33,681 bases of DNA from the NCBI GenBank assembly GCA_964511515.1, contig CAZEFU010000001.1, forward strand, positions 1 through 33,681, written 5' to 3'. How positions within the stretch are numbered: position 1 is the first letter of the stretch; each line of letters opens with the position of its first letter. Below are positions 3,108-26,152 of this stretch, piece by piece. The notes under the pieces were generated by a model. It saw only the letters and a program-made list of their open reading frames with translations. It had not been told where the DNA came from and did no database searches. A program made the translations under genes and the position numbers. This stretch comes from an uncultured Wenzhouxiangellaceae bacterium. GTDB lineage: Bacteria; Pseudomonadota; Gammaproteobacteria; Xanthomonadales; SZUA-36.

Positions 3108-4094
3108 TTAACCATCGGATGCCCGGCGCCGGAACCATAAGGTCAGGTAAAGGAATGCGGCTGCAACCACTAGGCCGTATAGCATTTCTATCGAAAACAG
3201 TCTACTGGCCATGTTAGTTAGAGTTGGTGCATGATCAAAACCTGAATCAAGGGGGATTCCAAGCGATACGCCTACGTCTACATTAGTATTACCCTCAGAG
3301 TTTGTATGAACACCGCCAGCGATTATGGCAGGGCTGTTTACCAACCAGTCTTTAATTATCCCGACTACACTATCGGGTATTTTGAGATTTTCCAAAAAAC
3401 CAATCCAGGCCTGCAAAATTGAGAGCAGAATGGGTGGCAGTATGGCAAATAACATTGGTACTTTGGGGGCGCTTGATGAGACCAGCAACAACCAACCGTA
3501 GAGTGGTAGCATCCAAATTGAATTCGCTAGCCAACCAGCCAACACAATGCCCCAAGCTTTGAGTGGCTCAGATGGCCCAAACAACAAATTCCAGGCGCTT
3601 TGATCTGCATTCCAGATCATCAGCATACCAATTAACATCAACACAATTTCTGTAACAATTAAGGCTAGCCAGAACATGAGTGGAATTACAAACATGGCGG
3701 CGAACAGCTTGGAGGCAATAGTCAGGGAATCTGATGTTGGCAGCGATTTCCAAAATAGTATCGATTTGTCTTTACGGTCATCATATAAAGAACCGAGCAG
3801 GTAGAAAAAAGTAACAATAGACATTATAAAAATAAAGAAACTGGAAAGCGCCATCATACTCTGAGTAACGAGCATCCCCCGCATCTCTTCAGGTTGAGTG
3901 GCTAACAAGCGCAACCCTTCTCTGAAAGTAAAATCATTATGGTCAAAAGTAGACTGAATGGTTATCCCCATAAGCATAAAGCCTATCGTGAGCAAACCAA
4001 TAATGATGGGGGTATTGCGGAAGGATCCTTTATTTTCCCAGTACTCTCGAAGTAGCAAGGTTTTAAATTTTGTGACTGTTGAATATTTATCCAT
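3108..4094 (-). CDS. ABC-2 type transporter permease (multi-pass membrane protein)
   Basis: The 328-aa protein has at least 6 hydrophobic segments. Its start overlaps the stop of the upstream ABC ATPase gene by 1 nt. There is no recognisable substrate signature. Confidence 0.75.
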   Translation of the reverse strand: MDKYSTVTKFKTLLLREYWENKGSFRNTPIIIGLLTIGFMLMGITIQSTFDHNDFTFREGLRLLATQPEEMRGMLVTQSMMALSSFFIFIMSIVTFFYLLGSLYDDRKDKSILFWKSLPTSDSLTIASKLFAAMFVIPLMFWLALIVTEIVLMLIGMLMIWNADQSAWNLLFGPSEPLKAWGIVLAGWLANSIWMLPLYGWLLLVSSSAPKVPMLFAILPPILLSILQAWIGFLENLKIPDSVVGIIKDWLVNSPAIIAGGVHTNSEGNTNVDVGVSLGIPLDSGFDHAPTLTNMASRLFSIEMLYGLVVAAAFLYLTLWFRRRASDG

Positions 4095-5740: not shown

Positions 5741-7456
5741 TCAAGCAGCAATAAGCCCCATAGCCTCAAGCTTTAAGATAATCTTCTGTGCGGCCTGCTC
5801 TGGTGACATATTGAGTGTATCAAGGGCTATTTCTGGTGTTTCCGGAGCCTCATACGGGTCATCAATACCAGTAAACTGTTTGATTTCTCCGCGTCTTGCC
5901 TTCGCGTATAGACCTTTTCTATCCCTTTTCTCGCAGACTTCTATTGGAGTAGAGATATGTACTTCAAGGAATCCGCCAAGAGGTTCAATATTTGCGCGAA
6001 TTTGATCGCGTGTATCACTATATGGCGCGATTGGTGCACAGATAGCTACACCACCATTTTTGGTGATTTCGCTGGCAACATAACCAATGCGTAAGACATT
6101 CAGGTTGCGGTGCTCACGGGAAAACCCGAGCTCTGATGAAAGGTTCTTGCGCACAACATCACCATCGAGCAGGGTTACTGGGCGTGAACCCATTTCTTGA
6201 AGTTTAATCATTAACACATTGGCAATTGTAGACTTGCCAGAACCAGATAGCCCTGTGAAAAATACCGTAAAGCCCTGATTGTGGCGGGGCGGATACCTGA
6301 GCCTGAGTGCTTCAACTACTTTGGGGAAAGTGAACCAATCGGGGATATCCAGGCCTTCATACAGGCGGCGGCGAAGTTCGGTGCCACTAATATTAAGAAC
6401 AGTTTCTCCCTCTACTACTTCATCAATTGCTGCGTATTGGGCGCGCTCAGATACATATACCATCATCTTAAATGGTACCATTTCAATACCAATTTCTTTC
6501 TCGTGCTTGGCCAGCAGTTCTTGTGCATCGAAGGCGCCATAAAAAGGCTCGCCGTTGCTATCGTTACCTGGGCCGGCATGATCACGACCTACAATCAGGT
6601 GGGTACAGCCATAATTTTTACGAATAATGGCATGCCAAAGAGCTTCCCTTGGGCCACCCATACGCATTGCTAAAGGCAGCAGGCTAAGTTGGGTGGTTTG
6701 CTCTGGGTAATTCGGTAACAGGGCTTCATAACAACGAACCCGAGTTAAATGATCAATATCACCCGGTTTGGTCATGCCAACTACTGGGTGGATTAATAAG
6801 TTTGCTTCAGTTTCGCGGGCAGCAAGAAAAGTTAATTCCTGGTGCGCTCTGTGCATTGGGTTTCTAGTTTGAAATGCAACGACACGTTGCCAGCCGAGTT
6901 TCTCGAATAAGGTGCGAAGTTTAATAGGATCATGGCGTAAATGTTTGCAGTCATAGTGAACCGTTGCTTGCAGGCCGCGCACTCGGCCACCAATATACAC
7001 AGGATTGCTGTGTTGTTGCAGATAGGCAACGGCTGGGTGCTTTTTATCTGTAGTTCCATATACGGCTTGGGCTTCGGCATCAAAATCTGGAGACCAGATA
7101 GTTTCAGCAGTCATTATTGCAATGGCAACGCCTTCGGCATCACGCAGTACAAACTCATCACCCTGTTCAAGTTTGGCTGCAAACTCAGTAGAAACATCCA
7201 AATTTATCGGTATTGGCCAGAGAGTCCCATCAACCAGGCGCATATCACTAAGTACTTTTTGATAATCATCTTTGTTGAGAAATCCCTCTAATGGTGAAAA
7301 ACCTCCATTTAGAAGCAGCTCCAGATCACAGATCTGACGCGCAGTTAAATCCCAGTCGGACAAGGTTCCAGCATGGGTTTTGGCATCTGCCAACTCAGTG
7401 TCGCTAACAAATAGGTTTAACAGTGGGCCACCGTGGCCATCGAATATTGAAGTCAT
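5741..7456 (-). CDS. Bifunctional sulfate adenylyltransferase (homo-oligomeric Sat type) / adenylylsulfate kinase
   Basis: The N-terminal two thirds carry the ATP-sulfurylase motifs QTRNPMHRAHQELT and VGRDHAGPG. The C-terminal third carries the APS-kinase P-loop FTGLSGSGKSTIA plus LDGDVVR. Confidence 0.92.
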   Translation of the reverse strand: MTSIFDGHGGPLLNLFVSDTELADAKTHAGTLSDWDLTARQICDLELLLNGGFSPLEGFLNKDDYQKVLSDMRLVDGTLWPIPINLDVSTEFAAKLEQGDEFVLRDAEGVAIAIMTAETIWSPDFDAEAQAVYGTTDKKHPAVAYLQQHSNPVYIGGRVRGLQATVHYDCKHLRHDPIKLRTLFEKLGWQRVVAFQTRNPMHRAHQELTFLAARETEANLLIHPVVGMTKPGDIDHLTRVRCYEALLPNYPEQTTQLSLLPLAMRMGGPREALWHAIIRKNYGCTHLIVGRDHAGPGNDSNGEPFYGAFDAQELLAKHEKEIGIEMVPFKMMVYVSERAQYAAIDEVVEGETVLNISGTELRRRLYEGLDIPDWFTFPKVVEALRLRYPPRHNQGFTVFFTGLSGSGKSTIANVLMIKLQEMGSRPVTLLDGDVVRKNLSSELGFSREHRNLNVLRIGYVASEITKNGGVAICAPIAPYSDTRDQIRANIEPLGGFLEVHISTPIEVCEKRDRKGLYAKARRGEIKQFTGIDDPYEAPETPEIALDTLNMSPEQAAQKIILKLEAMGLIAA

Positions 7457-8535: not shown

Positions 8536-9885
8536 ATGAAAATTGGTGTCGTTGGCACTGGCTATGTAGGATTGGTAACTGGTGCTTGTCTGGCAGAAAT
8601 TGGTTATCAGGTGCTTTGTCAGGATGTTAACACTGTTAAAATTGAAGCCCTTAAGCTGGGCAAGATCCCGATTTATGAGCCTGGTTTGACGAGCCTGGTA
8701 GAGCAAAATACCGCTAATAATCGCCTACATTTCACCAGCAGTATTACTGACTTAGTTGCCTTTGCAGAGATCATATTTATTGCTGTAGGGACTCCTGCAG
8801 ATGAAAATGGCTCTGCCGACCTCAAACATGTCATCAGCGTTGCCACATCAATTGGCGAACTTATGGATGATTATCGCTTGATAATTACCAAATCAACCGT
8901 ACCAGTTGGCACTGCCAGTAAAGTTTGTGCAATTATCGAGCAGTCTTTAGAGCAGCGTAAGCTGGATATTGACTTTGATGTAGCTTCCAATCCAGAGTTT
9001 CTAAAAGAAGGTGCAGCCATACAAGATTTTATGAGTCCTGACAGAATTGTAATAGGTGTTGATTCAAAACGCAGCGAACAGAGATTGCGGGATCTGTATG
9101 CACCTTTTAGTCAAGATCAAGAAAAACTCATTGTCATGGATATTGCCTCTAGTGAAATGACTAAATATGCTGCCAATATTATGTTAGCCAGTAAAATCAG
9201 CACAATGAATGAAATTGCAAATATTGCTGAGTTGGTAGGTGCAGATATCGACCATATACGGATCGGAGTTGGCTCTGATAAACGAATTGGTGAAAATTTC
9301 ATTTTTGCCGGCGCAGGTTACGGCGGTTCCTGTTTCCCAAAGGATGTACGCGCACTGGAAGAAATTGCCAGGGAATATGGCTATAAAGCTGAGATTCTGC
9401 AGGCAATTGAATCAGTGAATAAGCGCCAGAAGGAAGTATTGTTTTCCAAAATCGGAAACAAGTTTGGAGAAAACCTGACAGGTGTAACTATTGCAATCTG
9501 GGGCCTGGCCTTCAAACCCAATACAGATGATATGCGCGAGGCATCAAGCTTGGTGCTGATCGAAAAATTACTATCTTGTGGTGCGAATATTAACGTTTAC
9601 GATCCCGTAGCAATGACTGTAGCGCAAAGCTTGCTGCAAATGCATGCTGACAAAATACACTATTGCGATGATATGTACGCCGTCGCTGATGGTGCCGATG
9701 CACTGGTATTAGTTACTGAGTGGGAACAGTTTTCTGAGCCAGATTTTCCCCGTTTGTTTGCAGAGATGAAACAAAAAATAATTTTTGATGGAAGGAATAT
9801 TTGGAATCCGCAGATCTTAAATAAGCTGGGTTTTGAATATTTTGGTATCGGCAGGCAGAGTCACAACACTGGGAGCGAGGAATGA
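8536..9885 (+). CDS. ugd: UDP-glucose 6-dehydrogenase
   Basis: It has the N-terminal Rossmann motif [15 protein letters not shown], the catalytic-Cys region [12 protein letters not shown] and [14 protein letters not shown]. Confidence 0.93.
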
Positions 9886-10832
9886 GTCATATCTTGGTAA
9901 CTGGTGGGGCAGGCTTCTTGGGTTCTTACTTGTGTGAGAGATTACTTGCCCAAGGTCATAAAGTGACTTGCATGGACAATTATTTCACTGGGCAAAAACG
10001 CAATATAGAGCATTTGTTGGCAAAACTAGATTTTAATGCCATCAATCATGATGTAACAGTGCCTATAAAAATCAAGGTTGATGAAATATACAATTTGGCC
10101 TGCCCAGCATCACCCATACATTACCAAAGCGACCCAATAAAAACTACTCGTACATCTGTGCTCGGTGCCATAAATTTGCTGGAATTAGCCAAGCAGAATG
10201 GCGCCCGTATCCTCCAGGCATCTACCTCTGAAGTATATGGTGACCCGGCGGTACACCCACAACCTGAAGCCTACTGGGGGCATGTAAACCCGATTGGAAT
10301 TAGAGCCTGTTACGATGAGGGCAAGCGCTGTGCCGAAACCCTGTTTGTTGATTATTTTCGTGAACATGCAATGCCGATACGTATAGCCAGAATTTTTAAT
10401 ACATATGGCCCGGGTATGCATCCGGATGATGGTCGGGTGGTTTCTAATTTTATTATTCAAGCTCTTGAAAATAAAAATATTACTATCTATGGTGACGGCA
10501 GTCAGACTCGTTCTTTTTGCTATCGTGATGACTTGGTAGAGGGTCTGATACGATTGATGAATTCGGAGTTTACGGGCCCAGTTAATCTTGGTAATCCGCG
10601 TAGCTTTACAATGCTACAACTAGCAGAGCTGGTGCTGGAACTATGTGATTCTGATTCTCAACTTGTCTACCACGATTTACCAGCCGATGACCCAGTACAG
10701 CGGCAACCAGATGTTAGCTTGGCTGCAGAGCAATTAAATTGGCAGGCAGGAATTGAATTACGGCAAGGTTTATTAACAACTATTGAGTATTTTCGAGGTA
10801 TTTTGGCTGCAGGGAAGGCGAATCATGTCTGA
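9882..10832 (+). CDS. uxs: UDP-glucuronate decarboxylase (UDP-xylose synthase, SDR family)
   Basis: It reads [67 protein letters not shown] and [12 protein letters not shown], co-linear with eukaryotic UXS1 motifs. Its ATG overlaps the ugd stop (ATGA). Confidence 0.88.
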
Positions 10833-11340
10833 ATCACTCCGTGATCAGCTTTTGAGTGCAGGTTTTGCAAAACCTGTAAAAACTAAAGCTAAAAGTAATA
10901 AAAGATCAAAGCCAACAAACAACGCAAGCAAGCAAAAGTCGGATCTCGAGCAGGCATGGGCAGCGCGCAACCATGCGGAGAAAAGCGATAAACTGCAAAA
11001 ACGTGAACAGAAAAAAGCCGAGCAAAGGCGTAGGCAAGAAATAAATCAGAAAATATTTATGCTTGTCGACCCGGTTAAACTTAATATCCCTGATGCAGTT
11101 CTAGCTCGAAATTTCCTGCATCATGGCAAAATCAGAAAAGTAATGGTTGATGAAAAGCAACTGGGCAATCTGAATAGTGGTGAACTTGCAGTGGTTTTTT
11201 TACGCGGCAGGTATTTTCTGGTCAAAGCAGAAACTGCGACCGAGGTTGCAGACTTATCCCCATATCATGTACCCGATCTCAAGGGTGTAGTTGATGCTGA
11301 AGAGGCAGAACACCCTGTACCAGATGATTTAAGCTGGTAA
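10825..11340 (+). CDS. yaiL: DUF2058 family protein (E. coli YaiL-like)
   Basis: The N-terminus is [12 protein letters not shown] lysine/arginine-rich coiled middle section follows, and the C-terminus ends PVPDDLSW (E. coli YaiL ends VPDDLMW). The ATG at 10825 is preceded by GGAAGG and overlaps the uxs stop by 8 nt. The track start at 10783 is probably an artefact. Confidence 0.75.
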
Positions 11341-11345
11341 CAGGT

Positions 11346-12338
11346 CTATTTGCTCGCCAATAAGGTAAGCACCGCAAAATGCGGAGTGCGTTTCTCAATT
11401 GAGGAAGTAGTGCAGAAATTCACTTCCAAACCAGCAGTTTTACAAAAATCACGTAACTCTGGCTCATCAAAACCCTGATTTACGTGATCGAAAGCTGAAA
11501 CAGCGCGGGTATGGGCATGCTGACGCAAGGTCACAGCCAACAGATTACCACCAGTCTTGAGTACTCTGGATGCCTCATCAAACACCCTTTGTGGCTCTTG
11601 GGTATAGGTAAGCGCATGCATCAGCAGCACGGTATCCATGGATTGATCGGCAAATGGAAGATTGTGCATATCGCCCTTGTGGAAGCTTACATTCTGTCTG
11701 TCTTTAAGGCGTTTTTTGCCTGCCTCGAGAATCCGGTCACTGATATCCAGGCAATGGATGCTTTTGGCATGACCCGCCAGTAATTCTGCCATTACTCCAT
11801 CTCCGGAAGCAATATCCAGCACATCGCCAAGCTCTAGTAGATGCACCAAAGCCCTGGTGGTGGCCTCCCATGTACGCCCGGGTGAATAACGCCGTTCCAT
11901 ATCACCGGCAACAGAATCAGCCCAGCTCCGTCCTGCAGAACGCTGGGCAAGAATATCGGCTATGCGTTGGCGATCTTGTTCAATTAAGGGGTCAGCCACG
12001 CTATCGCGAAAAATCTCCCATAAAGCGGCTGTTTGGCGATCATTTTGCTGCGAACTTAGGCGGTAGAACACAGAAGCGCCTGCGCGCCGGTCATTTACCA
12101 AGCCAGCTTCGCGTAATTTGGCCAGGTGGGTAGATACTCGTGGTTGCGCCAGGCGAGTAATAGCAGCCAGCTCAGCCACACTAAGTTCTTCAGATTCAAG
12201 CAAAAACAGCAACCTTGCCCGAGTTGTATCAGATAATAGCCGAATTAGTTGCGATGCAGATTGCAGGTCGATCAGGTTTCTCCTTGAATCATTTATAGAG
12301 CAATAATGCCCGAGGTGGAGTTTAAACTCAATCTCCAT
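11346..12338 (-). CDS. ArsR/SmtB-family HTH fused to a class I SAM-dependent methyltransferase-like domain (SahR-like architecture)
   Basis: The N-terminal region reads LLSDTTRARLLFLLESEELSVAELAAITRLAQPRVSTHLAKLREAGLV (ArsR wHTH). The C-terminal region has the methyltransferase motif I VLDIASGDG and a type-11 fold (VLLMHAL...LKTGGNLL). Confidence 0.85.
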   Translation of the reverse strand: MEIEFKLHLGHYCSINDSRRNLIDLQSASQLIRLLSDTTRARLLFLLESEELSVAELAAITRLAQPRVSTHLAKLREAGLVNDRRAGASVFYRLSSQQNDRQTAALWEIFRDSVADPLIEQDRQRIADILAQRSAGRSWADSVAGDMERRYSPGRTWEATTRALVHLLELGDVLDIASGDGVMAELLAGHAKSIHCLDISDRILEAGKKRLKDRQNVSFHKGDMHNLPFADQSMDTVLLMHALTYTQEPQRVFDEASRVLKTGGNLLAVTLRQHAHTRAVSAFDHVNQGFDEPELRDFCKTAGLEVNFCTTSSIEKRTPHFAVLTLLASK

Positions 12339-16800: not shown

Positions 16801-18811
16801 CGGTGGTTCGGTGGGTTATGACCATAAGGTTATGGGTATTACTGCCAAAGGTGCCTGGGAATCTGTAAAACGGCATTTCCGCGAACTTGGAGTAGATACG
16901 CAAACAGAAGATTTTACAGTTGTTGGCATTGGCGATATGGCTGGTGATGTGTTTGGTAACGGAATGTTGCTTTCCGAGCATATTCGCTTGCAAGCAGCAT
17001 TTAATCATATGCATATCTTCCTTGACCCTGATCCAGATGCTGCCAGTAGCTTTGCCGAACGACAACGCATGTTTGCGCTACCGCGCTCCAGTTGGGATGA
17101 TTACAACCACAAGTTAATATCCAAAGGTGGCGGTGTTTTCTCAAGGCAACTGAAGTCCATTGAGCTAAGCCCACAAGTTAGGAAATGGCTGGGTGTGGAT
17201 GAAAAGCAAATGACACCAACTCAGCTAATAATATTGCTGTTAAAAGCTAAAGTTGACCTGCTCTGGAATGGTGGCATTGGTACCTATGTTAAGGCTGCTT
17301 CAGAGAGTAACGCTGATGCTGGCGATACTGCAAATAATATACTACGAATTAATGGTTCTGAGCTAAATTGCAAGGTTGTAGGCGAGGGCGGAAACTTGGG
17401 CTTTACCCAGCTTGGCAGGGTGGAATATGCATTCTCTGGTGGGCGGATCAATACTGACTTTATTGATAATTCCGCCGGTGTGGATTGCTCAGATCATGAA
17501 GTAAATATAAAAATATTACTCAACCAGCTTATGCGTCAGGATAAATTGGATTTTAAATCTAGAAATGAATTACTAGTTGAAATGACAGCTGATGTTGATC
17601 AACTGGTGCTGCGCTCTAACTATCTGCAATCACAAACCATTTCCATGATGGAACGCTTAACTGGCGCCAGATTAGGCGCCAAAGCACATTTTATTGAGTC
17701 TCTAGAGCAACAAGGATTACTGGATCGCGAGTTGGAGTTTCTGCCATCAGATGAAGATATTGAACAACGTCGTAGCACAGGTAAAGGTCTTACCAGACCA
17801 GAGCTATCAACTTTGCTCTCCTATGCAAAAATTGTGTTGTATCAGCAGTTACTGAAATCTGATCTACCTGACGATGAATATTTGCGTACCGAGTTGTTTG
17901 ATTACTTTCCAACAGCAATTCAGCAACGCTATCCAGATGAGATGCACCAGCATCGGTTGAAACGCGAAATCATCACTACTATGGTTACCAATTCGATAGT
18001 GAATCGAATGGGAGCGTCATTTTGTTTGATGATGCAAGAAGCAACTGGGCATAGTCCGGGTGAAGTTAGCAGAGCATTTCTGATTGCCCGCGATGCCTTT
18101 GACCTAGACCCTTTGTGGTTGGCTGTTGAGGCCTTGGATAATAAAGTTTCAGCTACAGTGCAGACTGATGCGCTGCTCGTGGTTTGGAAGCTGTTGCGAC
18201 AGGCTGTGCGCTGGTTGTTGGTACAAGCTGATCTAGAATTAGATATCAAACTTCAAGTTGATCGCCTGAAGCCTGGTATTACCAAGTTAGCGGCAAGTGT
18301 ATCGAGCCTATTGAATAAAGATGATCAGCGCCTGCTCTCATCTCAGGTACAAAGATATGTAGGCTCAGGGCTTGCAGATGAGCTTGCCAATACTCTTGCA
18401 CTTCTACCGCGTTTAACATCTGCATTAGATATTGTTGATGAAGCAGGGCGCAGAGATTTACCCGTGGAGAAAGTTGCCGCAGTATATTTCCAGCTTGGTC
18501 AAACCATGAACCTGAAGTGGCTGATGCAGCAAATTGAAGAACTGGATGTAGAAGGGCAATGGGATGCCGCGGCTAGAAATATTTTACGCGAGGAGTTGTT
18601 CCGGCAACATCGTGGACTCGCCGGGCAGGTATTGGTTGCTTATGGAGATGCCGGTGATGAAACTGTCAGCCGCTGGCTGGGTGATAACAAAGATGAATTG
18701 GATCGGGTAATCGAATTACTGGCCGATATGCGTACACTTCAAGAGCTTGATTACGCGACGATTTCAGTAGCAGTTAACTCGCTGCGTAGTTTGCTCAAAG
18801 AACCGGTCTAA
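13868..18811 (+). CDS. gdhB: Large (about 180 kDa class) NAD-specific glutamate dehydrogenase
   Basis: A single 1647-aa ORF. The central catalytic region reads RGGLRWSDRREDFRTEVLGLMKAQNVKNTMIVPVGAKGGFV and VVAADKGTATFSDTAN, with a dinucleotide fold GIGDMAGDVFGNGML. The size and layout match the Pseudomonas/Streptomyces GdhB class. Confidence 0.93.
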   Translation: MTEIKEIRAAVAALLKAREDLPFTDLRLLAEEFFRQATADEFLERSPDELAGRITDLYQFIEQRDKGASKVRIFNPEAEKNGWDSSASVIQLNNPDGPFLVDSISLLLAEGDIGIHHLFHPVINVVRDESGKLLRILSAEKSKKDKDSVSESLIYLVVDRLSKDRLQRLKKVIYKVLAELKLVVADWRPMVEKALETSAALTADSDSKSRDDSADASRFISWLADDNFIFFGYRQYKISGKGDARVLQIVPESGLGILDEQHSPGAPRPLSSLPAIDINSSKDKPDLLIITKTSTRSSIHRSGYMDYIGVKIFDKKGKAIGEHRFIGLFTSNAYTRSAWDTPLIRARVEAVMQHSGLRPDSHAWKALIHILETLPRDELFQSTVAELSSLALAILKLQERQRTRLLIRRELFGRFYSCMLFIPRDRFNTENRRAIQTILKRCLKGERIDYQVQVSDSPLARLHIVVRPRAGEDPQFDVAEIEAKIVKAVRSWEDELKQILIQKQGETDGLAVFEKFNRAVPLSYTEDVSPWVASFDLQNMAELTDENDLGMSLYRPRKKRMGVLRFKVFKYSRPIPLTEVLPMLENLGLSIVSERPYEFRLTADKSIWVQDFDMVLATGGDLDIEAVRENMQTAFERTWRGHNESDSFNRLVLSARLHWRQITILRAYCKYLLQTGMPFSQAYMAQTLENYPLLARLLVDLFETEFDPARDKESEAGARRRGGRMQKAYAVLHEDTASALGEYLQAAVDARGSGKRAAQIKTLKAAILCALESVASLDQDRILRAFCNLILATLRSNYFRSDEAGNPREYLSFKIDSALVVDLPKPCPFREIWVYSPRVEGIHLRMGKVARGGLRWSDRREDFRTEVLGLMKAQNVKNTMIVPVGAKGGFVVKRMPEGDRETVMKEVVHCYKSFIRGLLDISDNLVEDEVLPPPDVLRLDEDDPYLVVAADKGTATFSDTANEVAAEYGFWLGDAFASGGSVGYDHKVMGITAKGAWESVKRHFRELGVDTQTEDFTVVGIGDMAGDVFGNGMLLSEHIRLQAAFNHMHIFLDPDPDAASSFAERQRMFALPRSSWDDYNHKLISKGGGVFSRQLKSIELSPQVRKWLGVDEKQMTPTQLIILLLKAKVDLLWNGGIGTYVKAASESNADAGDTANNILRINGSELNCKVVGEGGNLGFTQLGRVEYAFSGGRINTDFIDNSAGVDCSDHEVNIKILLNQLMRQDKLDFKSRNELLVEMTADVDQLVLRSNYLQSQTISMMERLTGARLGAKAHFIESLEQQGLLDRELEFLPSDEDIEQRRSTGKGLTRPELSTLLSYAKIVLYQQLLKSDLPDDEYLRTELFDYFPTAIQQRYPDEMHQHRLKREIITTMVTNSIVNRMGASFCLMMQEATGHSPGEVSRAFLIARDAFDLDPLWLAVEALDNKVSATVQTDALLVVWKLLRQAVRWLLVQADLELDIKLQVDRLKPGITKLAASVSSLLNKDDQRLLSSQVQRYVGSGLADELANTLALLPRLTSALDIVDEAGRRDLPVEKVAAVYFQLGQTMNLKWLMQQIEELDVEGQWDAAARNILREELFRQHRGLAGQVLVAYGDAGDETVSRWLGDNKDELDRVIELLADMRTLQELDYATISVAVNSLRSLLKEPV

Positions 18812-19575
18812 TGGCACGGTTGCGTCTGCATATAGTTGGCTCCAGGCACACTCAAACACCGGCTGCCCTGGCCGAGTTAAAATCCAGATACGGGCATGTG
18901 CCACTGGATTCAGCAGATGTAATTGTTGCCCTTGGTGGAGATGGCTTTATGTTACGGGTTCTGCATAAATTTGTTGATACAGGACTACCAGTCTATGGTA
19001 TGCGTTTAGGCAGAGTTGGTTTTTTGATGAACAGGTATCAGAATGATGACTTACTGCAAAGGCTAGATCAGGCCGATTGCGTAGCTCTTAAACCACTGAA
19101 AATGGAAGCATTGACAGCAAGTGGCGAGAGGCATACAGCCATGGCAATAAATGAAGTTTCATTATTGCGCCAGAAAAACCAGGCGGCACACCTGCAAATT
19201 ACTGTTAATAATGCCGTAAAAATTGAAGAGCTGGTAGCGGATGGTGTGTTGGTGGCGACCGCTGCTGGTAGTAGTGCGTATAATTTTTCTGCCTATGGGC
19301 CAATCTTGCCGCTGGACTCGAATGCTTTGGCGCTCACCCCGATTTCACCGTTCAGACCACGCCGCTGGCGCGGGGCGGTACTGCCGGCGGCAGTGAAAAT
19401 AGTTATTGATTTGCTAGACCATCAACAACGGCCAGTTAGTGCGACCGCCGACTTCATAGAAGTACGGGATGTGGTCAGGGTAGCAATTACCGAAGACCAG
19501 CAAACCAATCTAAAGTTAATGTTTGACCCGGATCATTCTCTGGAAGAACGCATTCTAAACGAACAGTTCAGATAA
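18811..19575 (+). CDS. nadK: NAD kinase (short, about 255-aa type)
   Basis: It carries the GGDGFML motif, VGFLMN, NEVSL and DGVLVATAAGSSAYNFSAYGPI. The start ATG shares one base with the gdhB stop (TAATG). Confidence 0.85.
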   Translation: MARLRLHIVGSRHTQTPAALAELKSRYGHVPLDSADVIVALGGDGFMLRVLHKFVDTGLPVYGMRLGRVGFLMNRYQNDDLLQRLDQADCVALKPLKMEALTASGERHTAMAINEVSLLRQKNQAAHLQITVNNAVKIEELVADGVLVATAAGSSAYNFSAYGPILPLDSNALALTPISPFRPRRWRGAVLPAAVKIVIDLLDHQQRPVSATADFIEVRDVVRVAITEDQQTNLKLMFDPDHSLEERILNEQFR

Positions 19576-19696
19576 ATACTCATCTGCAAGCCTCTATTAC
19601 CTTGGTTGAAAGGACGCATGGGAGTATAAGTCGACTTACGCAAAGGTTCAGTAAGATATTGGATTTTAAATTAATGAATGGACACGGAACACCGAT

Positions 19697-21193
19697 ATGG
19701 AAATCAATATGATAAGAAGAATGACACTATTAACAATGCTCTTTGTTAGCGTGGGCAATACATCATATGCTGCTGAGTACTGGGTAGCAAAAAATGGTGA
19801 TGACGATAACAATTGCAGTAATGCAAGCAATGATGCCTGTTTGACCATCCAGAAAGGTATCAGCATGGCGACTCAGGCAGGTGATACTGTAAATATAGCA
19901 GCAGGAACTTATATAGAAGATACCTCTACGAGTCCTTATACAAGCAGAGCCGGGTGGCTCGATGGTGACTATGCCAGCCTGGGACTTGATTATAGTGGAA
20001 CACCTGGAAACCTAATCACCATACAAGCGGCTCCTGGTGCTGAAGGTGAGGTCATTATTGATAGTGAAATGGCTCGACTCGGACTAACTACAAGGAATCT
20101 CGATTATGTTCATATTAAGGGTTTGACTTTTATTAATAATAAAATAATTGGTATTGCATCCTGGGGGCAAACCAGTAATGCTGTGGCAGATGAATCCAGG
20201 CTTGCTATTGGTATAGTTGTTGAAAATTGTTACATATACAATACAAGTGGAGCATGGGGGAAGAATGTATCCGCAATTGGTATGTGGGGCTCTAAAGACT
20301 GGGTTGTGAGAAATAACAAGATTGAGAAAGTTGTTACTACTACACAAAATGAATCAGGTATTCAGGCTTATGGTGTTATTAATGCACTGATTGAGCATAA
20401 CGATATTTCAGATGTAAAAAACGGCATCTTCTGGAAAGATCACTTTATTACAGATCTAGCTACCCGAGGCAAGGTTAACGAATCTGAGATTAGATTTAAT
20501 AAGATTGAGGCAACAGACAGGCCGATTTGGGTTGGCATCAGGGCTACTAACTCTGTTGAGGCAGGAGATAATTATATACATCATAATATTTTATTCGGAC
20601 ATGGCTCCAATGAGGAGGGTGGTGTGAGTATAGAAATGGCTAGTGCTTTTGCACAAAGTGGCAGTGTGCGGATTGAACACAACTTGATTGATGGGGAAAA
20701 TATCACCCACTCCCGAGGTATTAAAGTTGACTCATCTGAAAATATTACAGTAAAGGGCAATATAATTATTCGCACTAAAGTGAATGCAGAATATACTACC
20801 TGGAACTCAAGTATAGCTTTAGGGAAGAAGCCCACTCTTAACTATTCGGATTACAATATCTACAATACTTTTAATCTTGTAATTTCTGCAGATAGCTATG
20901 GCAGTGCTTACCAGGGTTTTTCTGCTTTAAACATTTGGCAGACAGCCCTGGCTTCTCAATTTGTTTCACTAAATTTTGATAATCCAGATGCAAATAGCAT
21001 TGCTGTAAATCCAGCTGATTTATTTGATAACCTGGATAATAAAAACTACATATACAAAGCTGGTTCACCTGCCATAGGCATGATGCCGGATGGAACCAAC
21101 GCAGGTCCTTATCAGCTTGGCAATGAAGTCATTGGGTTGTTACCGCAGTGGCCTGCTGGTACAGGCCTGATATTTGCCAATGACTTTGAATAG
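19697..21193 (+). CDS. Secreted right-handed parallel beta-helix repeat protein (possible polysaccharide lyase/hydrolase/epimerase fold; function unknown), paralog A
   Basis: It has a Sec signal peptide (RRMTLLTMLFVSVGNTSYA|AE). The N-terminal cap YWVAKNGDDDNNCSN..DACLTIQKGI...GDTVNIAAGTY is typical of pectate-lyase-fold proteins. Repeated short I/V-x-N coils follow (VVENCYIYNT, VVRNNKIE, LIEHNDI, YIHHNIL, RIEHNLI, TVKGNII). It ends LIFANDFE-stop. The start could also be the in-frame ATG at 19709. Confidence 0.85.
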   Translation: MEINMIRRMTLLTMLFVSVGNTSYAAEYWVAKNGDDDNNCSNASNDACLTIQKGISMATQAGDTVNIAAGTYIEDTSTSPYTSRAGWLDGDYASLGLDYSGTPGNLITIQAAPGAEGEVIIDSEMARLGLTTRNLDYVHIKGLTFINNKIIGIASWGQTSNAVADESRLAIGIVVENCYIYNTSGAWGKNVSAIGMWGSKDWVVRNNKIEKVVTTTQNESGIQAYGVINALIEHNDISDVKNGIFWKDHFITDLATRGKVNESEIRFNKIEATDRPIWVGIRATNSVEAGDNYIHHNILFGHGSNEEGGVSIEMASAFAQSGSVRIEHNLIDGENITHSRGIKVDSSENITVKGNIIIRTKVNAEYTTWNSSIALGKKPTLNYSDYNIYNTFNLVISADSYGSAYQGFSALNIWQTALASQFVSLNFDNPDANSIAVNPADLFDNLDNKNYIYKAGSPAIGMMPDGTNAGPYQLGNEVIGLLPQWPAGTGLIFANDFE

Positions 21194-21233
21194 TTACTTC
21201 GCACAATATAAAACATAAATAAGAAAAACCAAG

Positions 21234-22196
21234 ATGAAAACTAACATAATAAAATCTTTGATAATCTTAACGACCTTATTAGGGTTTACCAATGTATCAG
21301 CACAGCAAGGTGCAGTACCGACAACATTAGCCAGCCCAGAATGGGAGTTTTTTGATGATTTTGAGGGAGCTATTGATAATTCTTTTTGGATATGTGGGAT
21401 GAATGGTGCTGCAGAAAAGGTGTTGCATGGTGTCGATAGACTAGAAGCCACCAGTAAAGTATTAGAGATGAAATATTACGCAGCTGGCACAGATCCCCAC
21501 ACTATAGCTCCTGGTGATTCCTGGACTGAATGTGATTTTGGTCTTACTTCAAACGGTATTTCTATACAGGCCGTACAAGTAGAGGTGAGCTTTAAAATAT
21601 TTACACCTGCTAATTATGTGCCTGTTGAACTCAATCATAAGTTTTTTATGCTTTGGTCTGGAAATTATGGCGGTTCAGTTGCAAATATTGCTGTTAATAG
21701 TGAAGCATGGGGCAATGAATCTGTGGCATTACCATCTATTAATCCTGGTATTGATCAAGTAAATTACGGACACTCATGGAATATGGATCAGTTGCCTGTA
21801 TGGGAAACTGGATCTGGCGAATGGTCAAGCTATCAAATATTTTTAGAACTAGCTACTGAAGAAGGCGACTATGGTTTATATGAGATTTTTAAGGATAATG
21901 TCCTGTTGACGGCAACTTATGCACCTAATCTCAATAACTGGGGATGGACAGGAAATGGCAATCCTGATTTTAATGGTAATGAACTTATTAAATACGCTTC
22001 TTCAACAATTAACAATGGCGGTAATTTTATAGATCAAGGTACATTATTAGGCTGGGCAAACGGTGCCCCAGGTGGTGGATTCCAGGAAGATACCAAATTT
22101 TTGATAGATGACTTTAGAATCCGAGCTAACGCTGTACACGGAGCTGTACTAAATTCTAATGACTTAATATTGACGGATGGCTTTGAGAGCAACTAG
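21234..22196 (+). CDS. Secreted protein, probable ConA-like/jelly-roll fold (function unknown)
   Basis: It has a signal peptide (SLIILTTLLGFTNVSA|QQ). The mature N-terminus is EWEFFDDFEG and the C-terminal strand is KFLIDDFRI, both typical of the edge strands of lectin/glucanase/lyase jelly rolls. It ends LILTDGFESN-stop. The fold assignment is inference only. Confidence 0.8.
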   Translation: MKTNIIKSLIILTTLLGFTNVSAQQGAVPTTLASPEWEFFDDFEGAIDNSFWICGMNGAAEKVLHGVDRLEATSKVLEMKYYAAGTDPHTIAPGDSWTECDFGLTSNGISIQAVQVEVSFKIFTPANYVPVELNHKFFMLWSGNYGGSVANIAVNSEAWGNESVALPSINPGIDQVNYGHSWNMDQLPVWETGSGEWSSYQIFLELATEEGDYGLYEIFKDNVLLTATYAPNLNNWGWTGNGNPDFNGNELIKYASSTINNGGNFIDQGTLLGWANGAPGGGFQEDTKFLIDDFRIRANAVHGAVLNSNDLILTDGFESN

Positions 22197-22224
22197 ATAC
22201 TTTAAGCTCAAGAGAAATAAGGAC

Positions 22225-23115
22225 ATGATGCATAAAGCAATATTTAAATTAACCCTATTACTTATATTAGTTAGCTTCATTCGTTTTGATGCATTCGCAG
22301 GCACCTTGGAAATGACCTTTGATTCTGGTGTTTCAGGTGAAAGCATCCAGTCAGGTGATTGCATAAAATATGGTGAACCAGTATTTACCTCAACTGCTGG
22401 CAGGACATTTTATACCGAAGCAGAATCATTTGGTATAGGCAAATCTGCTGAACTGAATGTTGTGCAGGGCAGCAATGGATTTGGAACACTGGGGGGAGTA
22501 ATAAACTTCCCTTCTTGCTCTAATTTTGATGATTTAGCCGGCAAGATCACGAAAGGGCAAGAGATCTGGGTAAGTGTCCGGTTAAAATTCCCAGCAGATT
22601 TCGAGTTTAACCAAAATGGCAGAAACAAGTTTCTAAGATTAAGGGCTTTTCACGATGTGGATGGTTCACCTGTGAGCGAAGGCTATAACGACTTATATAT
22701 TAATGGTCCATCAGGATTAGGCGAGCAGCCATTTCATTATATTTTTGAAGGAGCCCAACAGTGGTACTTTGCAGGTGAGCCCAATGATTTTTTTAAATTG
22801 GGTTATTGGAATACTATAGAGTTCTACCTCAAACTTGACAATGTAAAAGGCAGCGAGGGTGGTGAGTCAATGGTCAGAGTTTGGATTGATGGCAGATTAA
22901 TTGGTGAAACTAATGACAGGAATATTTTGGTTTATGCCGATAGCTATATAAGCTCATTATACTTTTTCACTTATTGGGACAATGAGGGCGCACATATGGA
23001 TCAGAAGTTTTGGGCTGATGACCTGACAATTACGACAGAAACTCCCGCTGACAGGGATCAATATGGTAACCCCATGATTGGAGTTGGTTTGCTTTTTACG
23101 AATGGCTTTGAGTAA
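22225..23115 (+). CDS. Secreted protein, probable jelly-roll fold resembling heparin-lyase-I-like/polysaccharide-lyase beta-sandwiches (function unknown)
   Basis: The ATG-ATG at 22225 is preceded by AAGGA. It has a signal peptide (AIFKLTLLLILVSFIRFDAFA|GT). The C-terminal half reads YWNTIEFYLKLDN...MVRVWIDGRLIGE...SLYFFTYWDN...KFWADDLTI, a pattern common in jelly-roll lyase/lectin families. It ends LLFTNGFE-stop. The track ORF starts earlier (22177), at an ATG embedded in the upstream gene's terminal motif. Confidence 0.8.
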   Translation: MMHKAIFKLTLLLILVSFIRFDAFAGTLEMTFDSGVSGESIQSGDCIKYGEPVFTSTAGRTFYTEAESFGIGKSAELNVVQGSNGFGTLGGVINFPSCSNFDDLAGKITKGQEIWVSVRLKFPADFEFNQNGRNKFLRLRAFHDVDGSPVSEGYNDLYINGPSGLGEQPFHYIFEGAQQWYFAGEPNDFFKLGYWNTIEFYLKLDNVKGSEGGESMVRVWIDGRLIGETNDRNILVYADSYISSLYFFTYWDNEGAHMDQKFWADDLTITTETPADRDQYGNPMIGVGLLFTNGFE

Positions 23116-23214
23116 ATATATGAAGAAAACTATTCTAGGCAGAGATTATTGCATAACTATGGTGACGAGTAAAAAGTGATTAAGTCCTACAGCTTTTTGC
23201 TGAAAACTATTACC

Positions 23215-23236
23215 AATAGCTGCTGCTATTATTTTT
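23215..23236 (+). terminator. Weak candidate intrinsic terminator after the third island gene
   Basis: AATAGC (23215-23220), loop TGCT, GCTATT (23225-23230), then ATTTTT. The stem is only 6 bp and AT-rich. Confidence 0.3.
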
Positions 23237-23282
23237 AGATTTCCAGCCCAATCTGACGGCACCCATGTTTTTTCTTTTGCCG

Positions 23283-23288
23283 TATAAT
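23283..23288 (+). promoter_or_regulatory. Candidate -10 element (perfect TATAAT) upstream of beta-helix paralog B
   Basis: TATAAT lies at 23283-23288, 27 nt before the ATG at 23315. No convincing -35 was found at 16-18 nt spacing. Confidence 0.25.
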
Positions 23289-23314
23289 TAGCGAAATCAT
23301 CTAGGTAAAAACTT

Positions 23315-24868
23315 ATGTATGTAATAAATGAATATAAAAGTAATAAAGCAGTAAAATTGTTGCTTATATCATTAACCCTACTTTGTTTGGGCATCACAAA
23401 TGCATTAGCTCAAGATATATATTGGGTTACAAAGAGTGGTAGTGACGACAACAATTGCACCAATATAACCGATGATGCCTGTCTAACAATCCAAAAAGGA
23501 ATAAGTGTGTTGACTCCAGGCGATACACTCAATGTAAGCGCAGGAATTTATGCAGATGATGGTGGTACAAGCCCCTATATTCCAACAGGAACTTTTGTGG
23601 GATGGTCAGATAATGTTCCGCCCTCGAGCAACATTGTATTTACGACCAATGGTGAATTAGACAATTTAATTACAGTCAGAGCAACACCAGGAGACGAGGG
23701 CCTGGTAACCATTGACGGCGAAAACCAAAGAATAGCAATACACCTGCAAAATACAGATTACATCCGCATAAGTGGCTTTAATATTATCAACAGCAGAACT
23801 AGAGCAATTGCAAGTTGGGGTAAGTCAAATGACCCTTTAGTAGATCCTGAAAGAATAAGCACAGGTGTTATTATTGAAAATAATAAAATGATTAATACCA
23901 TAGGGGAGTATGGACGCAATACCAATATCATATCCATGTGGGGTTCACAAGACTGGATTGTGAGAAACAATTATTTAGACAATGTTTATGAGGTAGATGC
24001 GGGGACTACTAATTTTAGACGCATGGGCACAGCTATTATGGCATATGGTGTAATAAATGCCTTGATTGAAAACAACGAAATAAGAAATGCAGGTGCAGGC
24101 ATTTTTTGGAAAGACCACTATATAACTGACCTTGCCACCCGAGGTAAATATTTTGAGTCTGAGATTAGGTACAATAAAATTATAGTAGACTCAAAACCAG
24201 TTTACATCGGTATTAGGGCTGGTGATTCTGCTGAAGCCGGAGATAATTACATACATCATAATATTTTATATAAAGATAAACTCAATGATTCAGGTGGCAT
24301 AAATGTGGAAATGGCAGGAGCTTTTGCCCAAAGTGGAGATGTGCGGATCGAACACAATTTGATAGATGGAGTAAATATTACTAACTCCAGAGGTATTAAG
24401 GTTGATGCCTCTAGAAATATCACGGTAAAGGGAAATATAATCATTCGTGCCAGAACGAATGCGCGATATACAACATGGAGTGCAGCTACAGATCTGGGTA
24501 AAAAGCCTGTATTGAACTATTCTGATTATAATGTATATCATAGTTCAAATAGTATAATTAGTGTTGATGCCTATGGGCTCTCTTCCCAGGGTTTTGCTAC
24601 TCTGCCTCCATGGCAGGCAGCCTTGGCTTCTCAATTTGTAACACTGAATTTCGATAATCCTGATACAAATAGCATTACAGTAAATCCAGCAGATCTATTT
24701 GATAACCTGGGTGATAAAAATTACATATACAAAGTTGGTTCACCTGCCATAGACATGATGCCAGATGGAACCAATGCAGGCCCTTATCAATTTGGTGGTG
24801 AAACTATTGGATTATTACCACAGTGGCCCAGTGGCGCAGTACCGATATTTACCGATGGTTTCGAATAA
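23315..24868 (+). CDS. Secreted right-handed parallel beta-helix repeat protein, paralog B
   Basis: It has a signal peptide (KLLLISLTLLCLGITNALA|QD) and is co-linear with the 19697-21193 product over its whole length (YWVTKSGSDDNNCTN..DACLTIQKGI, AGDNYIHHNIL, VRIEHNLIDG.NIT.SRGIKVD, NITVKGNIIIR). It ends PIFTDGFE-stop. Confidence 0.87.
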   Translation: MYVINEYKSNKAVKLLLISLTLLCLGITNALAQDIYWVTKSGSDDNNCTNITDDACLTIQKGISVLTPGDTLNVSAGIYADDGGTSPYIPTGTFVGWSDNVPPSSNIVFTTNGELDNLITVRATPGDEGLVTIDGENQRIAIHLQNTDYIRISGFNIINSRTRAIASWGKSNDPLVDPERISTGVIIENNKMINTIGEYGRNTNIISMWGSQDWIVRNNYLDNVYEVDAGTTNFRRMGTAIMAYGVINALIENNEIRNAGAGIFWKDHYITDLATRGKYFESEIRYNKIIVDSKPVYIGIRAGDSAEAGDNYIHHNILYKDKLNDSGGINVEMAGAFAQSGDVRIEHNLIDGVNITNSRGIKVDASRNITVKGNIIIRARTNARYTTWSAATDLGKKPVLNYSDYNVYHSSNSIISVDAYGLSSQGFATLPPWQAALASQFVTLNFDNPDTNSITVNPADLFDNLGDKNYIYKVGSPAIDMMPDGTNAGPYQFGGETIGLLPQWPSGAVPIFTDGFE

Positions 24869-25082
24869 GAGAAACTTATATAAAACAAATACAGTTAGAA
24901 AGATAACATTATCAGTCTTGATTCTTTTAAGCATAAGCAGCACATCATTCGCTGCTGAGTGCTGGGGAGGAGTGATTGTCTTTCCTGAAAAAGATCCTGT
25001 ATTGAGTGAACAATTATCACTGATAAGGATAGGCGACTACTTCCATGCCTTTTCAGAATGGTATAGCCCCGGATATTGCTAG
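24855..25082 (+). CDS. Hypothetical 75-aa secreted pre-peptide; predicted 42-aa mature peptide with Cys at position 3 and at the C-terminus
   Basis: The only usable start is the ATG at 24855, inside the last codons of the upstream gene. It has a basic n-region (MVSNKRNLYKTNTVRK), an h-region ITLSVLILLSISS and an SFA|AE cleavage-like site. The mature sequence would be AECWGG...SPGYC-stop. No family was recognised and there is no Shine-Dalgarno. Confidence 0.45.
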   Translation: MVSNKRNLYKTNTVRKITLSVLILLSISSTSFAAECWGGVIVFPEKDPVLSEQLSLIRIGDYFHAFSEWYSPGYC

Positions 25083-25122
25083 TCGCAATTCCAGGAAACT
25101 GGCTGTGTTATTTCCGCAGAGC

Positions 25123-26043
25123 CTATGGATTAGCAACCCCATGAGGAACATGCCCGGTAGGTACATGAGCTTTGGCAGACTCACAGTGCATCTGTTGGTC
25201 ATCAAAGAATATATCAGCACCAAAAGCCTGTAAAAACTCGCCTTTGGAAAGCCCACCAAGAAATAGCGCTTCATCAACTCTAATACCCCACTCACGTAAG
25301 GTCAGAATCACCCTTTTATGGGCTGGTGCTGAACGGGCAGTTACCAGTGCGGTACGGATTGGATTACCCTCAATTGGCCAGGCAGATTGAATGCGATGCA
25401 AGGATTCCAGTACTTTACGAAATGGGCCTTCTCGCAATGGTGTATTGGCAGCGGCTTTTTCAGACGCAGAAAAAGCCTTAAGGCCCGATTGCTTGTAAAC
25501 TCTTTCGGCTTCATCTGAGAACAAGACGGCATCACCATCAAAGGCAATTCGCAACTGATCCGGGTGTCGGTTGTTGGCTGTGGAGGGCAAAATAGTCGCT
25601 GCGGCATAACCTTGTTCAAGAGTTTGTCTGACATCCTCACCATTAGCTGAAAGAAACAACTGCGCCCCGAAAGAACTCATATACTGCTGCGGTGGCTCGC
25701 CATTGGTAAAAGCAGCCCGAGTTATATCCAGGCCCATGGCCTCGATGGTATTAAAGATCCTCAAGCCAGAATCGGCGCTATTGCGGGACAACAAAATCAC
25801 TTCAACAAGAGGGCTATCACCACGACCTTGGTTGAGTTTTAGAAGCTTTCCTACCAGCGGTAAGGCAACGCCTTCTTCCAACAGCTGATTCTCATGCTCG
25901 CGCTGATATCTAGCGTAAGACTCCAAGCCCTGAGTTTCAAAGATCAAATGTGCTTCATCGAGGTCAAACAACGCACGTGAGGCTATTGCCACGACCAATG
26001 GCTCGGGCTTGGGTTCAGAAATGGTTGAAATAACATCTTGCAT
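25123..26043 (-). CDS. 5'-nucleotidase, cytosolic cN-I-like family (Pfam 5_nucleotid type)
   Basis: VVAIASRALFDLDEAHLIFETQGLESYARYQREHENQLLEEGVALPLVGKLLKLN and IRTALVTARSAPAHKRVILTLREWGIRVDEALFLGGLSKGEFLQAFGADIFFDDQ match my recollection of the bacterial cN-I-like family. The likely start is the ATG at 26043 (MQDVIS), not the track start at 26130. Confidence 0.72.
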   Translation of the reverse strand: MQDVISTISEPKPEPLVVAIASRALFDLDEAHLIFETQGLESYARYQREHENQLLEEGVALPLVGKLLKLNQGRGDSPLVEVILLSRNSADSGLRIFNTIEAMGLDITRAAFTNGEPPQQYMSSFGAQLFLSANGEDVRQTLEQGYAAATILPSTANNRHPDQLRIAFDGDAVLFSDEAERVYKQSGLKAFSASEKAAANTPLREGPFRKVLESLHRIQSAWPIEGNPIRTALVTARSAPAHKRVILTLREWGIRVDEALFLGGLSKGEFLQAFGADIFFDDQQMHCESAKAHVPTGHVPHGVANP

Positions 26044-26152
26044 AAGGCCACTATAGCAAATTCTAGTCGCAAAACCTGAGAAATGAAATGTGCTATACCT
26101 GAGCCTGAAAATATTGATAAAATAGCGCAAATCAATTAACTCGGAAAACCCT

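Follow-up and report, generated by a model that had tools for sequence, protein, structure and literature searches.

Secreted beta-helix or jelly-roll enzymes such as AlgL, PslG and ExoK are encoded inside exopolysaccharide (EPS) clusters and trim or disperse the polymer. In Vibrio cholerae the VPS cluster encodes a secreted enzyme of this kind, RbmB, which acts on the polymer of its own locus (PMC11637428, PMC12993940), and WceF has the same role in the stewartan cluster of Pantoea stewartii (PMC7949094). We analysed a stretch of 33,681 nucleotides (nt) from an uncultured Wenzhouxiangellaceae bacterium (contig CAZEFU010000001.1, assembly GCA_964511515.1), hereafter the window, which carries an island of genes for secreted-type proteins between nadK and a 5'-nucleotidase gene. 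Four large genes encode two beta-helix proteins (bH1 and bH2) and two jelly-roll proteins (JR1 and JR2). We estimate a probability of about 0.55 that the island was acquired as a set and encodes secreted enzymes that depolymerise or modify EPS and bear an undescribed C-terminal tag. Unlike the RbmB and WceF type of depolymerase, the window copy lies outside any EPS locus and comprises four genes.

The island occupies positions 19576-25122, exactly from the nadK stop (19575) to the 5'-nucleotidase stop (25123). A 121-nt spacer (19576-19696) on the plus strand separates nadK from bH1 (19697-21193; 498 residues), which is followed by JR1 (21234-22196; 320 residues), JR2 (22225-23115; 296 residues; mechanical ORF start at 22177) and bH2 (23315-24868; 517 residues). 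These four and a small open reading frame (ORF) behind bH2 are all co-directional, on the plus strand. A previous sequence-only reading of this DNA had placed the five ORFs here and had given all of them Sec-type signal peptides. In line with this, every N-terminus combines a positive start, a hydrophobic core and an A-x-A-like site, read here as a Sec signal peptide, and the N-terminus is a helix in both AlphaFold models (bH1 and JR2).

Homologues of bH and JR2 were found in the same kind of EPS-locus slot as depolymerases of the RbmB, WceF and AlgL type. In Cellvibrio sp. NN19 a bH homologue (46% identity) lies between the GT4 and Wzy genes of a Wzx/Wzy EPS cluster. This cluster encodes GT4 transferases, Wzy, a pyruvyl transferase, a low-molecular-weight phosphatase fusion, an ATP-grasp enzyme, two deacetylases and a FemAB protein, the last of which passes TIGR03019, the XrtA/PEP-CTERM-associated model. 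JR2 homologues take the equivalent slot of homologous EPS clusters in Marinobacter algicola and Marinimicrobium. When the proteins of this Cellvibrio cluster were used to search every fetched locus, the same Wzy was found beside bH in L091, L092, L095, L101 and L105-L108 (E = 1e-97 to 1e-201), accompanied by varying subsets of the ATP-grasp, deacetylase, pyruvyl-transferase and FemAB genes. Homologues inside EPS clusters were likewise found in L003, L113 and L114. Of the longer bH loci, roughly half belong to EPS biosynthesis clusters. One EPS locus type thus regularly includes a secreted bH or JR2 enzyme. The EPS-embedded homologues, from Cellvibrio, Marinobacter, Marinimicrobium and metagenomes, are the more distant ones. 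Closer relatives of the window proteins lie outside EPS loci, as JR-bH modules or in larger enzyme clusters (L001, L093, L094, L098, L115), with JR-bH adjacency recurring in L001, L093, L094 and L098. RbmB itself was among the structural matches of bH1, at rank 42, but this match was weak (TM ~0.3). The polysaccharide role that the sequence-only reading had proposed on fold alone is therefore supported beyond fold by the bH and JR2 homologues in EPS clusters, with catalysis an inference. Neither this link nor the C-terminal tail described below had been noticed there. Two Cellvibrio neighbours of 312 and 322 residues were considered as jelly-roll homologues and rejected, as they have no signal peptide and are read as cytoplasmic.

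We propose that a chromosomal insertion gave the host four putative secreted glycan-active enzymes, two beta-helix and two beta-jelly-roll, which, after export by Sec, would be released from the cell or displayed on its outside. Their target, to be cut or remodelled there, would be an acidic EPS of the type made by the widespread Wzx/Wzy locus with GT4 glycosyltransferases, Wzy polymerase, pyruvyl transferase, deacetylases, ATP-grasp enzyme and FemAB-type protein. Other Gammaproteobacteria have a single bH or JR2 homologue inside the EPS locus as its secreted enzyme, whereas here the enzyme genes would have been uncoupled from biosynthesis, multiplied into JR-bH modules and given a lineage-specific C-terminal tail, which we take as a tag for secretion or retention. 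Should the four proteins prove active, they would represent two or three new polysaccharide-lyase-like families tied to one widespread uncharacterised EPS type. They would then give access to this polymer and to how it is turned over in marine biofilms, and might include enzymes of use for degrading biofilms. Elsewhere in the window, 9-14 kb upstream of the island, are a UDP-glucose/GDP-mannose dehydrogenase family gene overlapping an NAD-dependent epimerase gene (8536-10832), probably for nucleotide-uronate synthesis, and a bifunctional ATP-sulfurylase/APS-kinase gene (5741-7456); acidic or sulfated glycans may thus be among the products of the host.

bH1 and bH2 are paralogues with 59% identity. 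Their family comprises 88 clusters (at 90% identity), almost all of them from metagenomes. The homologue P0002 shares 64% identity with bH1 and 68% with bH2. Both are thus closer to P0002 than to one another, indicating that the duplication is old. At the nucleotide level the paralogues are 71-84% identical over the C-terminal half, with 83% identity in the last 257 nt (20936-21192 in bH1, 24611-24867 in bH2) and approximately 71% further upstream. Either the C-terminal region is unusually conserved or there has been gene conversion between the paralogues.

The AlphaFold model of bH1 is a right-handed parallel beta-helix with a predicted local distance difference test score (pLDDT) of 91.5, in which tail residues 488-498 fall below 50. 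The fold and paralogy suggested by the sequence-only reading were thus confirmed. No Pfam or NCBIfam model passed its threshold on bH1 or bH2, and neither had any Pfam match. The nearest solved structures in Foldseek were GH136 lacto-N-biosidase, PL9 rhamnogalacturonan lyase, Pel9A, PL6 alginate lyases and chondroitinase B (E = 1e-8 to 1e-5, template modelling (TM) score ~0.5-0.58), with GH120 enzymes also among the nearest. These include PL9 5olq at E = 2e-8 (target-normalised TM, TMt, 0.58) and Pel9A 1ru4 at E = 1.5e-6 (TMt 0.57). A profile of the bH family also matched PL9 5olq (E = 8e-10) and GH120 3vst among solved structures, over the generic N-terminal cap only. The bH proteins share with the PL9, PL6, chondroitinase B, GH136 and GH120 enzymes the fold and this cap, with its motif YWV..G.D.N.G...P..TIQ.A....GDT..I..GTY, and some bH homologues match PF22842, PF13229 or PF07602. 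Among 44 bH relatives, six match PF22842 (Pel9A-like) and 16 match PF13229; the weak matches that recur in the family are Beta_helix, DUF1565, Disaggr_assoc and Pel9A-like. However, the sequence similarity is limited to the cap, TM is ~0.5, the window proteins are without Pfam match, and the family's invariant G-I-F-W-K-D-H is not matched to the catalytic motifs of these enzymes.

Within the bH family W246-K247-D248-H249 is invariant and E262, E264, E288 and H295 are conserved, and these residues are kept in both paralogues; bH2 retains all invariant family residues, the W-K-D-H motif included. The motifs G-I-F-W-K-D-H, E-S-E-I-R-Y-N and E-A-G-x-N-Y-I-H-H-N lie on successive turns of the helix. 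In Pel9A-like enzymes a Ca2+-binding Asp cluster goes with a catalytic Lys; the invariant K247, D248 and H249 and the conserved E262, E264 and E288, as defined from the bH family alignment, are at most candidates for such a site.

JR1 and JR2 have no BLASTP similarity to each other. Comparison of their profiles nevertheless gave an hhalign probability of 93% (E = 3.7e-7), indicating on sequence grounds that they are remote homologues. They form small families of their own, of 20 clusters (JR1) and 41 clusters (JR2). The AlphaFold model of JR2 is a beta-jelly-roll (pLDDT 91.4; tail residues 290-295 below 50), which bears out the jelly-roll guess of the sequence-only reading for this protein, with JR1 tied to it by the profile comparison. 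In Foldseek, the eight best matches of JR2 were without exception lyases of uronate polymers, from PL36 (Aly36B), PL20 (glucuronan lyase) and PL14 (alginate lyases). Among these were PL36 6kzk (E = 5e-10), PL20 2zzj, PL14 5gmt (E = 9e-8; TM 0.51 normalised to the query and 0.56 to the target) and 3gne (E = 2e-7). The structural matches of the island proteins, obtained with the AlphaFold and Foldseek searches that the sequence-only reading had recommended, are thus dominated by polysaccharide lyases and glycosidases.

Profile matches point the same way, at a weaker level. JR2 scored 18.2 bits (E = 0.002) against the PL14 model PF21294, below its gathering threshold of 27 bits. Among JR2 relatives, 29/37 had a sub-threshold PL14 match (E <= 0.01, best 3e-6) and 15/37 matched PF14099 (Polysacc_lyase). 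A weak PF14099 match was also present in 7/19 JR1 relatives (best E = 3.5e-5), and JR1 itself had none. Neither protein therefore has a significant profile match in these comparisons, and no solved structure was found by sequence with the JR2 family profile.

In vAL-1 (PL14), the catalytic Lys/Arg/Tyr constellation lies in the cleft and consists of K197, S219, R221, Y233 and Y235. Candidates for such a constellation in the family alignment of JR2 are K134 and R137, which are invariant, and R139, Y153 and Y157, which are nearly so. E174, Q259 and D264 are also invariant and D155 nearly invariant, and the motif reads N-K-F-L-R-L-R ... S-E-G-Y-N-D-L-Y. In JR1, E99, N134, K136 and Y145 are invariant and H180 nearly so, with the motif N-H-K-F-F-x-L-W-S-G-x-Y-G. 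Compared with vAL-1 (3gne), AkAly30 (5gmt), the T. reesei glucuronan lyase (2zzj) and Aly36B (6kzk), JR2 has the same fold (E = 5e-10 to 2e-7, target-normalised TM 0.55-0.61), the two JR families have weak matches to PF21294 and PF14099, and the conserved Lys, Arg, Tyr and Gln would fit beta-elimination chemistry. By contrast, identity in the structural alignments is only 11-16% and the Pfam score is sub-threshold. Beta-elimination appears a more probable chemistry for the putative island enzymes than hydrolysis, and the invariant charged and aromatic residues of each family are consistent with an active site. With no membership of PL14, PL9 or PF14099 recovered, the island proteins are best described as new families within known fold classes.

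A link of JR2 and bH to the Methanosarcina disaggregatase type of matrix-degrading enzyme is possible, as suggested by Disaggr_repeat and Disaggr_assoc matches. Seven bH relatives match Disaggr_assoc. In a Chromatiales metagenome-assembled genome (MAG), a JR2 homologue follows a 580-residue protein with Disaggr_repeat, CBM96 and weak PL14 matches (L085:8098-9840, L086:5768-7510).

The same structural matches could be read differently: the island would be an ordinary locus for carbohydrate degradation, with no tie to bacterial EPS, and would serve to forage on uronate polysaccharides of algae or plants in the surroundings (alginate, glucuronan, ulvan, pectin). The best matches are indeed lyases of alginate, glucuronan and rhamnogalacturonan, the relatives were sampled from marine sediment and hydrothermal sites, a GH9 cellulase is among the tail-bearing neighbours in L115, and L087 joins bH with PL14-like, glyoxal-oxidase-like and SASA esterase genes. 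However, a polysaccharide utilisation locus is not what we found: the island consists of four secreted proteins and an orphan ORF, lacks any TonB-dependent transporter, sugar transporter, regulator or uronate-catabolism gene, and is flanked by housekeeping genes. No member reaches a CAZy-linked Pfam threshold, and roughly half of the longer bH loci lie in EPS biosynthesis clusters and not in catabolic ones. We therefore consider foraging unlikely.

It is less probable still, and in our view improbable, that the four are non-catalytic surface or matrix proteins, with beta-helix adhesins and lectin-like jelly-rolls that bind and do not cut polysaccharide, in the manner of biofilm matrix proteins. 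Interchangeable anchoring tails (PEP-CTERM, the type IX secretion system (T9SS) C-terminal domain) are a typical trait of proteins at the cell surface, the structural matches of JR2 include toxin binding domains as well as lectins such as calreticulin, and Pfam recognises no catalytic signature. Against this, the top-ranked structural matches are enzymes, and invariant charged and aromatic clusters on successive helix turns and in the jelly-roll are the usual mark of an active site. The single-copy slot in EPS loci also resembles that of known locus-encoded depolymerases.

The most interesting element of the island, and the more consequential lead, is a C-terminal motif shared by all four large proteins: GLIFANDFE in bH1, DLILTDGFESN in JR1, GLLFTNGFE in JR2 and VPIFTDGFE in bH2. 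From 27 compiled tails the consensus is D-L-I-F-x-N-G-F-E-COOH. Across ORFs of at least 100 residues in all sequences gathered for the analysis, the strict pattern was present at 14 of 3051 ORF ends, where the frequency of the motif inside the sequences predicts 0.44, and these 14 cluster in seven loci. The tail occurs on at least ten unrelated secreted families, GH9 cellulase included, and its recurrence on them is non-random. L001 has five tails, on a CarboxypepD_reg-repeat protein, a JR1-like protein, a bH and two proteins of ~370 residues. Five consecutive tail genes in L115 (939-14776; MAG GCA_024275935.1) encode a Big_9 protein, a GH9 cellulase, a bH, a He_PIG protein and an unknown 764-residue protein, and are located immediately downstream of genes for AAA_16/AAA_22 and T2SSB (GspA/GspB-like) proteins; a frameshift divides this bH gene into parts of 204 and 317 residues. 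One occurrence was found in a Marinicella MAG (L026).

The tail is 8-9 residues long and ends the protein, with neither a transmembrane helix nor a basic cluster. It matched no NCBIfam or Pfam model, no PF07589 or PF18962 match was present in the window proteins, and a literature search found no description of the tail or of the bH and JR families. The tail is predicted to be disordered in both models, which does not support a role as a structural strand of the fold. Its creation by a DNA element was also rejected, since its codons vary synonymously and no conserved DNA lies downstream; this indicates selection on the peptide and not on a DNA element.

More distant members of all three families carry other C-terminal elements at the tail position. 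These are PEP-CTERM in the bH homologues P0011, P0012, P0016, P0019 and P0036 and the JR2 homologues P0128 and P0131, and the T9SS C-terminal domain in the JR1 homologues P0092-P0094 and P0097; in flavobacterial JR1 homologues this domain replaces the tail. By analogy, such lineage-dependent swapping is the behaviour of known sorting signals. As in the PEP-CTERM/exosortase, T9SS and 'choice-of-anchor' systems, one catalytic family bears different C-terminal signals by lineage, and several neighbouring secreted proteins of one genome share one tail. The window proteins differ in having neither the PEP motif with transmembrane helix and Arg cluster nor the ~80-residue Por_Secre_tail domain of T9SS. 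A second C-terminal tail at this position, 'RPxAPxxLxVx', consists of a Pro-rich segment and then a short strand, and is similar to an Fn3 domain in its first strand. Of the seven secreted enzyme-like proteins encoded in a marine sediment metagenome locus (L093:8850-19901), six end in this tail, namely two JR2, one bH, one other beta-helix protein and two JR1-like proteins. The tail is also present at the C-termini of P0018, P0056, P0129 and P0134, and bH and JR2 homologues embedded in EPS loci end in it.

One tentative explanation, which we regard as possible but doubtful, is that the tail is a new short C-terminal sorting or secretion tag without a transmembrane segment, which in a single lineage of Gammaproteobacteria, close to Marinicella, Wenzhouxiangella and MAGs from hydrothermal or sediment samples, would route many unrelated secreted glycan-active proteins. 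A receptor, for example a type II secretion PDZ-like domain or a surface docking protein, would then recognise the tail as a beta-strand whose carboxylate is free. The motif resembles the first strand of JR1-like domains ('WEFFDDFEG', 'VTFTDGFESG'), making strand docking conceivable, and 'RPxAPxxLxVx' may be a second tag that marks the same enzyme families when they lie in EPS loci. Linear export or retention signals of Gram-negative Sec-dependent extracellular enzymes are largely unknown, and a nine-residue tag common to a GH9 cellulase and to beta-helix, jelly-roll and Ig-like proteins would make the export-signal question directly testable.

Synteny indicates that the block was inserted in this lineage. 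A scan of 185,579 species genomes, queried with the C-terminal half of the NAD-glutamate dehydrogenase encoded nearby, returned 80 loci. In the closest genome (L004; a MAG labelled Oceanospirillales SZUA-51), five flanking proteins share 68-81% amino-acid identity with those of the window, gene order is the same, and nadK and the 5'-nucleotidase gene are ~40 bp apart. This adjacency was also found in eight Lysobacterales, Wenzhouxiangella and unclassified gammaproteobacterial MAGs (L006, L008, L010, L011, L014, L015, L017, L018). In L009 and L012 a gap of ~1.5 kb separates nadK from the nucleotidase gene, after which come gcdH and the gene for the M28 peptidase. The block is thus absent from the site in 11/11 informative related loci, with the two genes adjacent in nine of them, and no bH or JR homologue lies at the nadK site in any of the 80 fetched loci. 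Homologues occur elsewhere in unrelated contexts, such as truB/M48 in L002 and blaR in L001. Given this absence and these contexts, the block is an insertion relative to related genomes. The acquisition suggested by the sequence-only reading is therefore supported by the comparison of nadK neighbourhoods that it had recommended, and not by base composition. That the block is instead ancestral at the nadK site and was deleted in relatives is very unlikely: the lack of integrase, tRNA or repeat scars, the host-like synonymous codon usage and the presence of just one genome closer than ~70% identity among those compared would allow it, but the block is missing from all 11 informative loci across several lineages, nine of them with tight nadK/nucleotidase adjacency, its homologues sit in unrelated contexts, and its GC lies below that of every other window gene.

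The insertion is probably not recent. At the right junction, a 40-nt spacer (25083-25122) before the 5'-nucleotidase stop has a CTGG...GCTGTGT stretch in common with the L004 spacer; on this weak evidence, some of the ancestral intergenic spacer is probably still present at this junction. In the window, as in L004, nadK and the 5'-nucleotidase gene lie on opposite strands, and the two are co-directional in the eight Lysobacterales/Wenzhouxiangella MAGs with tight adjacency; an inversion at this junction is older than the insertion.

The composition of the block differs modestly from that of its surroundings. Guanine plus cytosine (GC) content was 0.377-0.402 in the five island ORFs and 0.409-0.493 in the 20 other window genes, with no overlap (Mann-Whitney p = 4e-5), so that the AT-richness described in the sequence-only reading is real though modest. 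Mean GC at the third codon position was 0.33 in the island and 0.41 in the other genes (p = 0.002). A large part of the GC shift lies at codon position 1 because the proteins are rich in N, K, I, Y and F. With synonymous choice also within the range of the flanking genes, contrary to the codon-usage deviation that had been suspected, composition alone is weak evidence for acquisition. Scans of the window found no integrase, transposase or tRNA, in agreement with the sequence-only reading, and an Rfam search gave no match. No direct or inverted repeats flank the island; the boundary scan gave only repeats derived from the bH paralogues. A promoter and terminator scan showed no enrichment over shuffled sequence, left junction included. 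Searches of plasmids and phages with the island proteins (tblastn) gave no match, so no vector was identified. Phage origin was rejected, as a viral fold library gave only generic tailspike-type beta-helices no closer than the enzymes in the PDB.

Several of these results weigh against an acquired set of tagged EPS enzymes. The codon usage of the island is not foreign, and no mobility signature (repeats, tRNA, plasmid or phage) points to a route or an age of acquisition. None of the five island proteins reaches any Pfam or NCBIfam threshold, in agreement with the earlier statement that they have no recognisable catalytic signature. Sequence searches against solved structures returned nothing for single proteins and only the generic N-terminal cap for family profiles. 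Since TM-scores are only ~0.5-0.6, they assign a fold class but not a catalytic mechanism, and the conserved residues, defined within families, are candidate active-site residues. The tail has no transmembrane segment and no identified partner. Finally, no EPS biosynthesis, transport or regulatory gene adjoins the island in the window, so that the link to a substrate rests on homologues that are 40-57% identical.

The small ORF at the end of the island (24855-25082, plus strand; 75 residues) overlaps the end of bH2 by 14 nt. Its start convincingly resembles a signal peptide, and the mature peptide predicted from it has a cysteine at either end. An exhaustive phmmer search found no homologue among 1.84 billion (1.84e9) representative proteins, and its exact sequence is absent from the protein collection, in which no gene had been called for it. 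Relatives have no counterpart of it behind bH, no fetched locus has a match, and its codon use is the least typical in the window. Its status as a real gene is unproven. The five-gene island of the sequence-only reading thus holds for the four large genes and not for the fifth.

Both flanks are conserved in synteny. The left flank is nadK (18811-19575, plus strand; NF003406, 368 bits against a cut-off of 211), and the right flank is the 5'-nucleotidase gene (25123-26130, minus strand; PF06189, E = 1e-128). The other flanking genes encode an NAD-dependent glutamate dehydrogenase, acyl-CoA dehydrogenases, a NUDIX protein, an M28 peptidase, MurB, a dihydroorotate dehydrogenase and an aldehyde dehydrogenase. 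The view that every gene outside the island has an assignable role was correct for most but not for two ORFs: 3108-4094, which has no Pfam match, and 10783-11340, whose sole Pfam match is DUF2058. The former (minus strand, 328 residues) lies directly downstream of genes for an ABC-transporter ATPase and a GntR-family regulator and may encode the permease partner of that ATPase. At 11346-12338 (minus strand), an ArsR-type helix-turn-helix domain is fused to an S-adenosylmethionine-dependent methyltransferase domain, and this fusion gene is kept upstream of the acyl-CoA dehydrogenase and gdhB genes in relatives.

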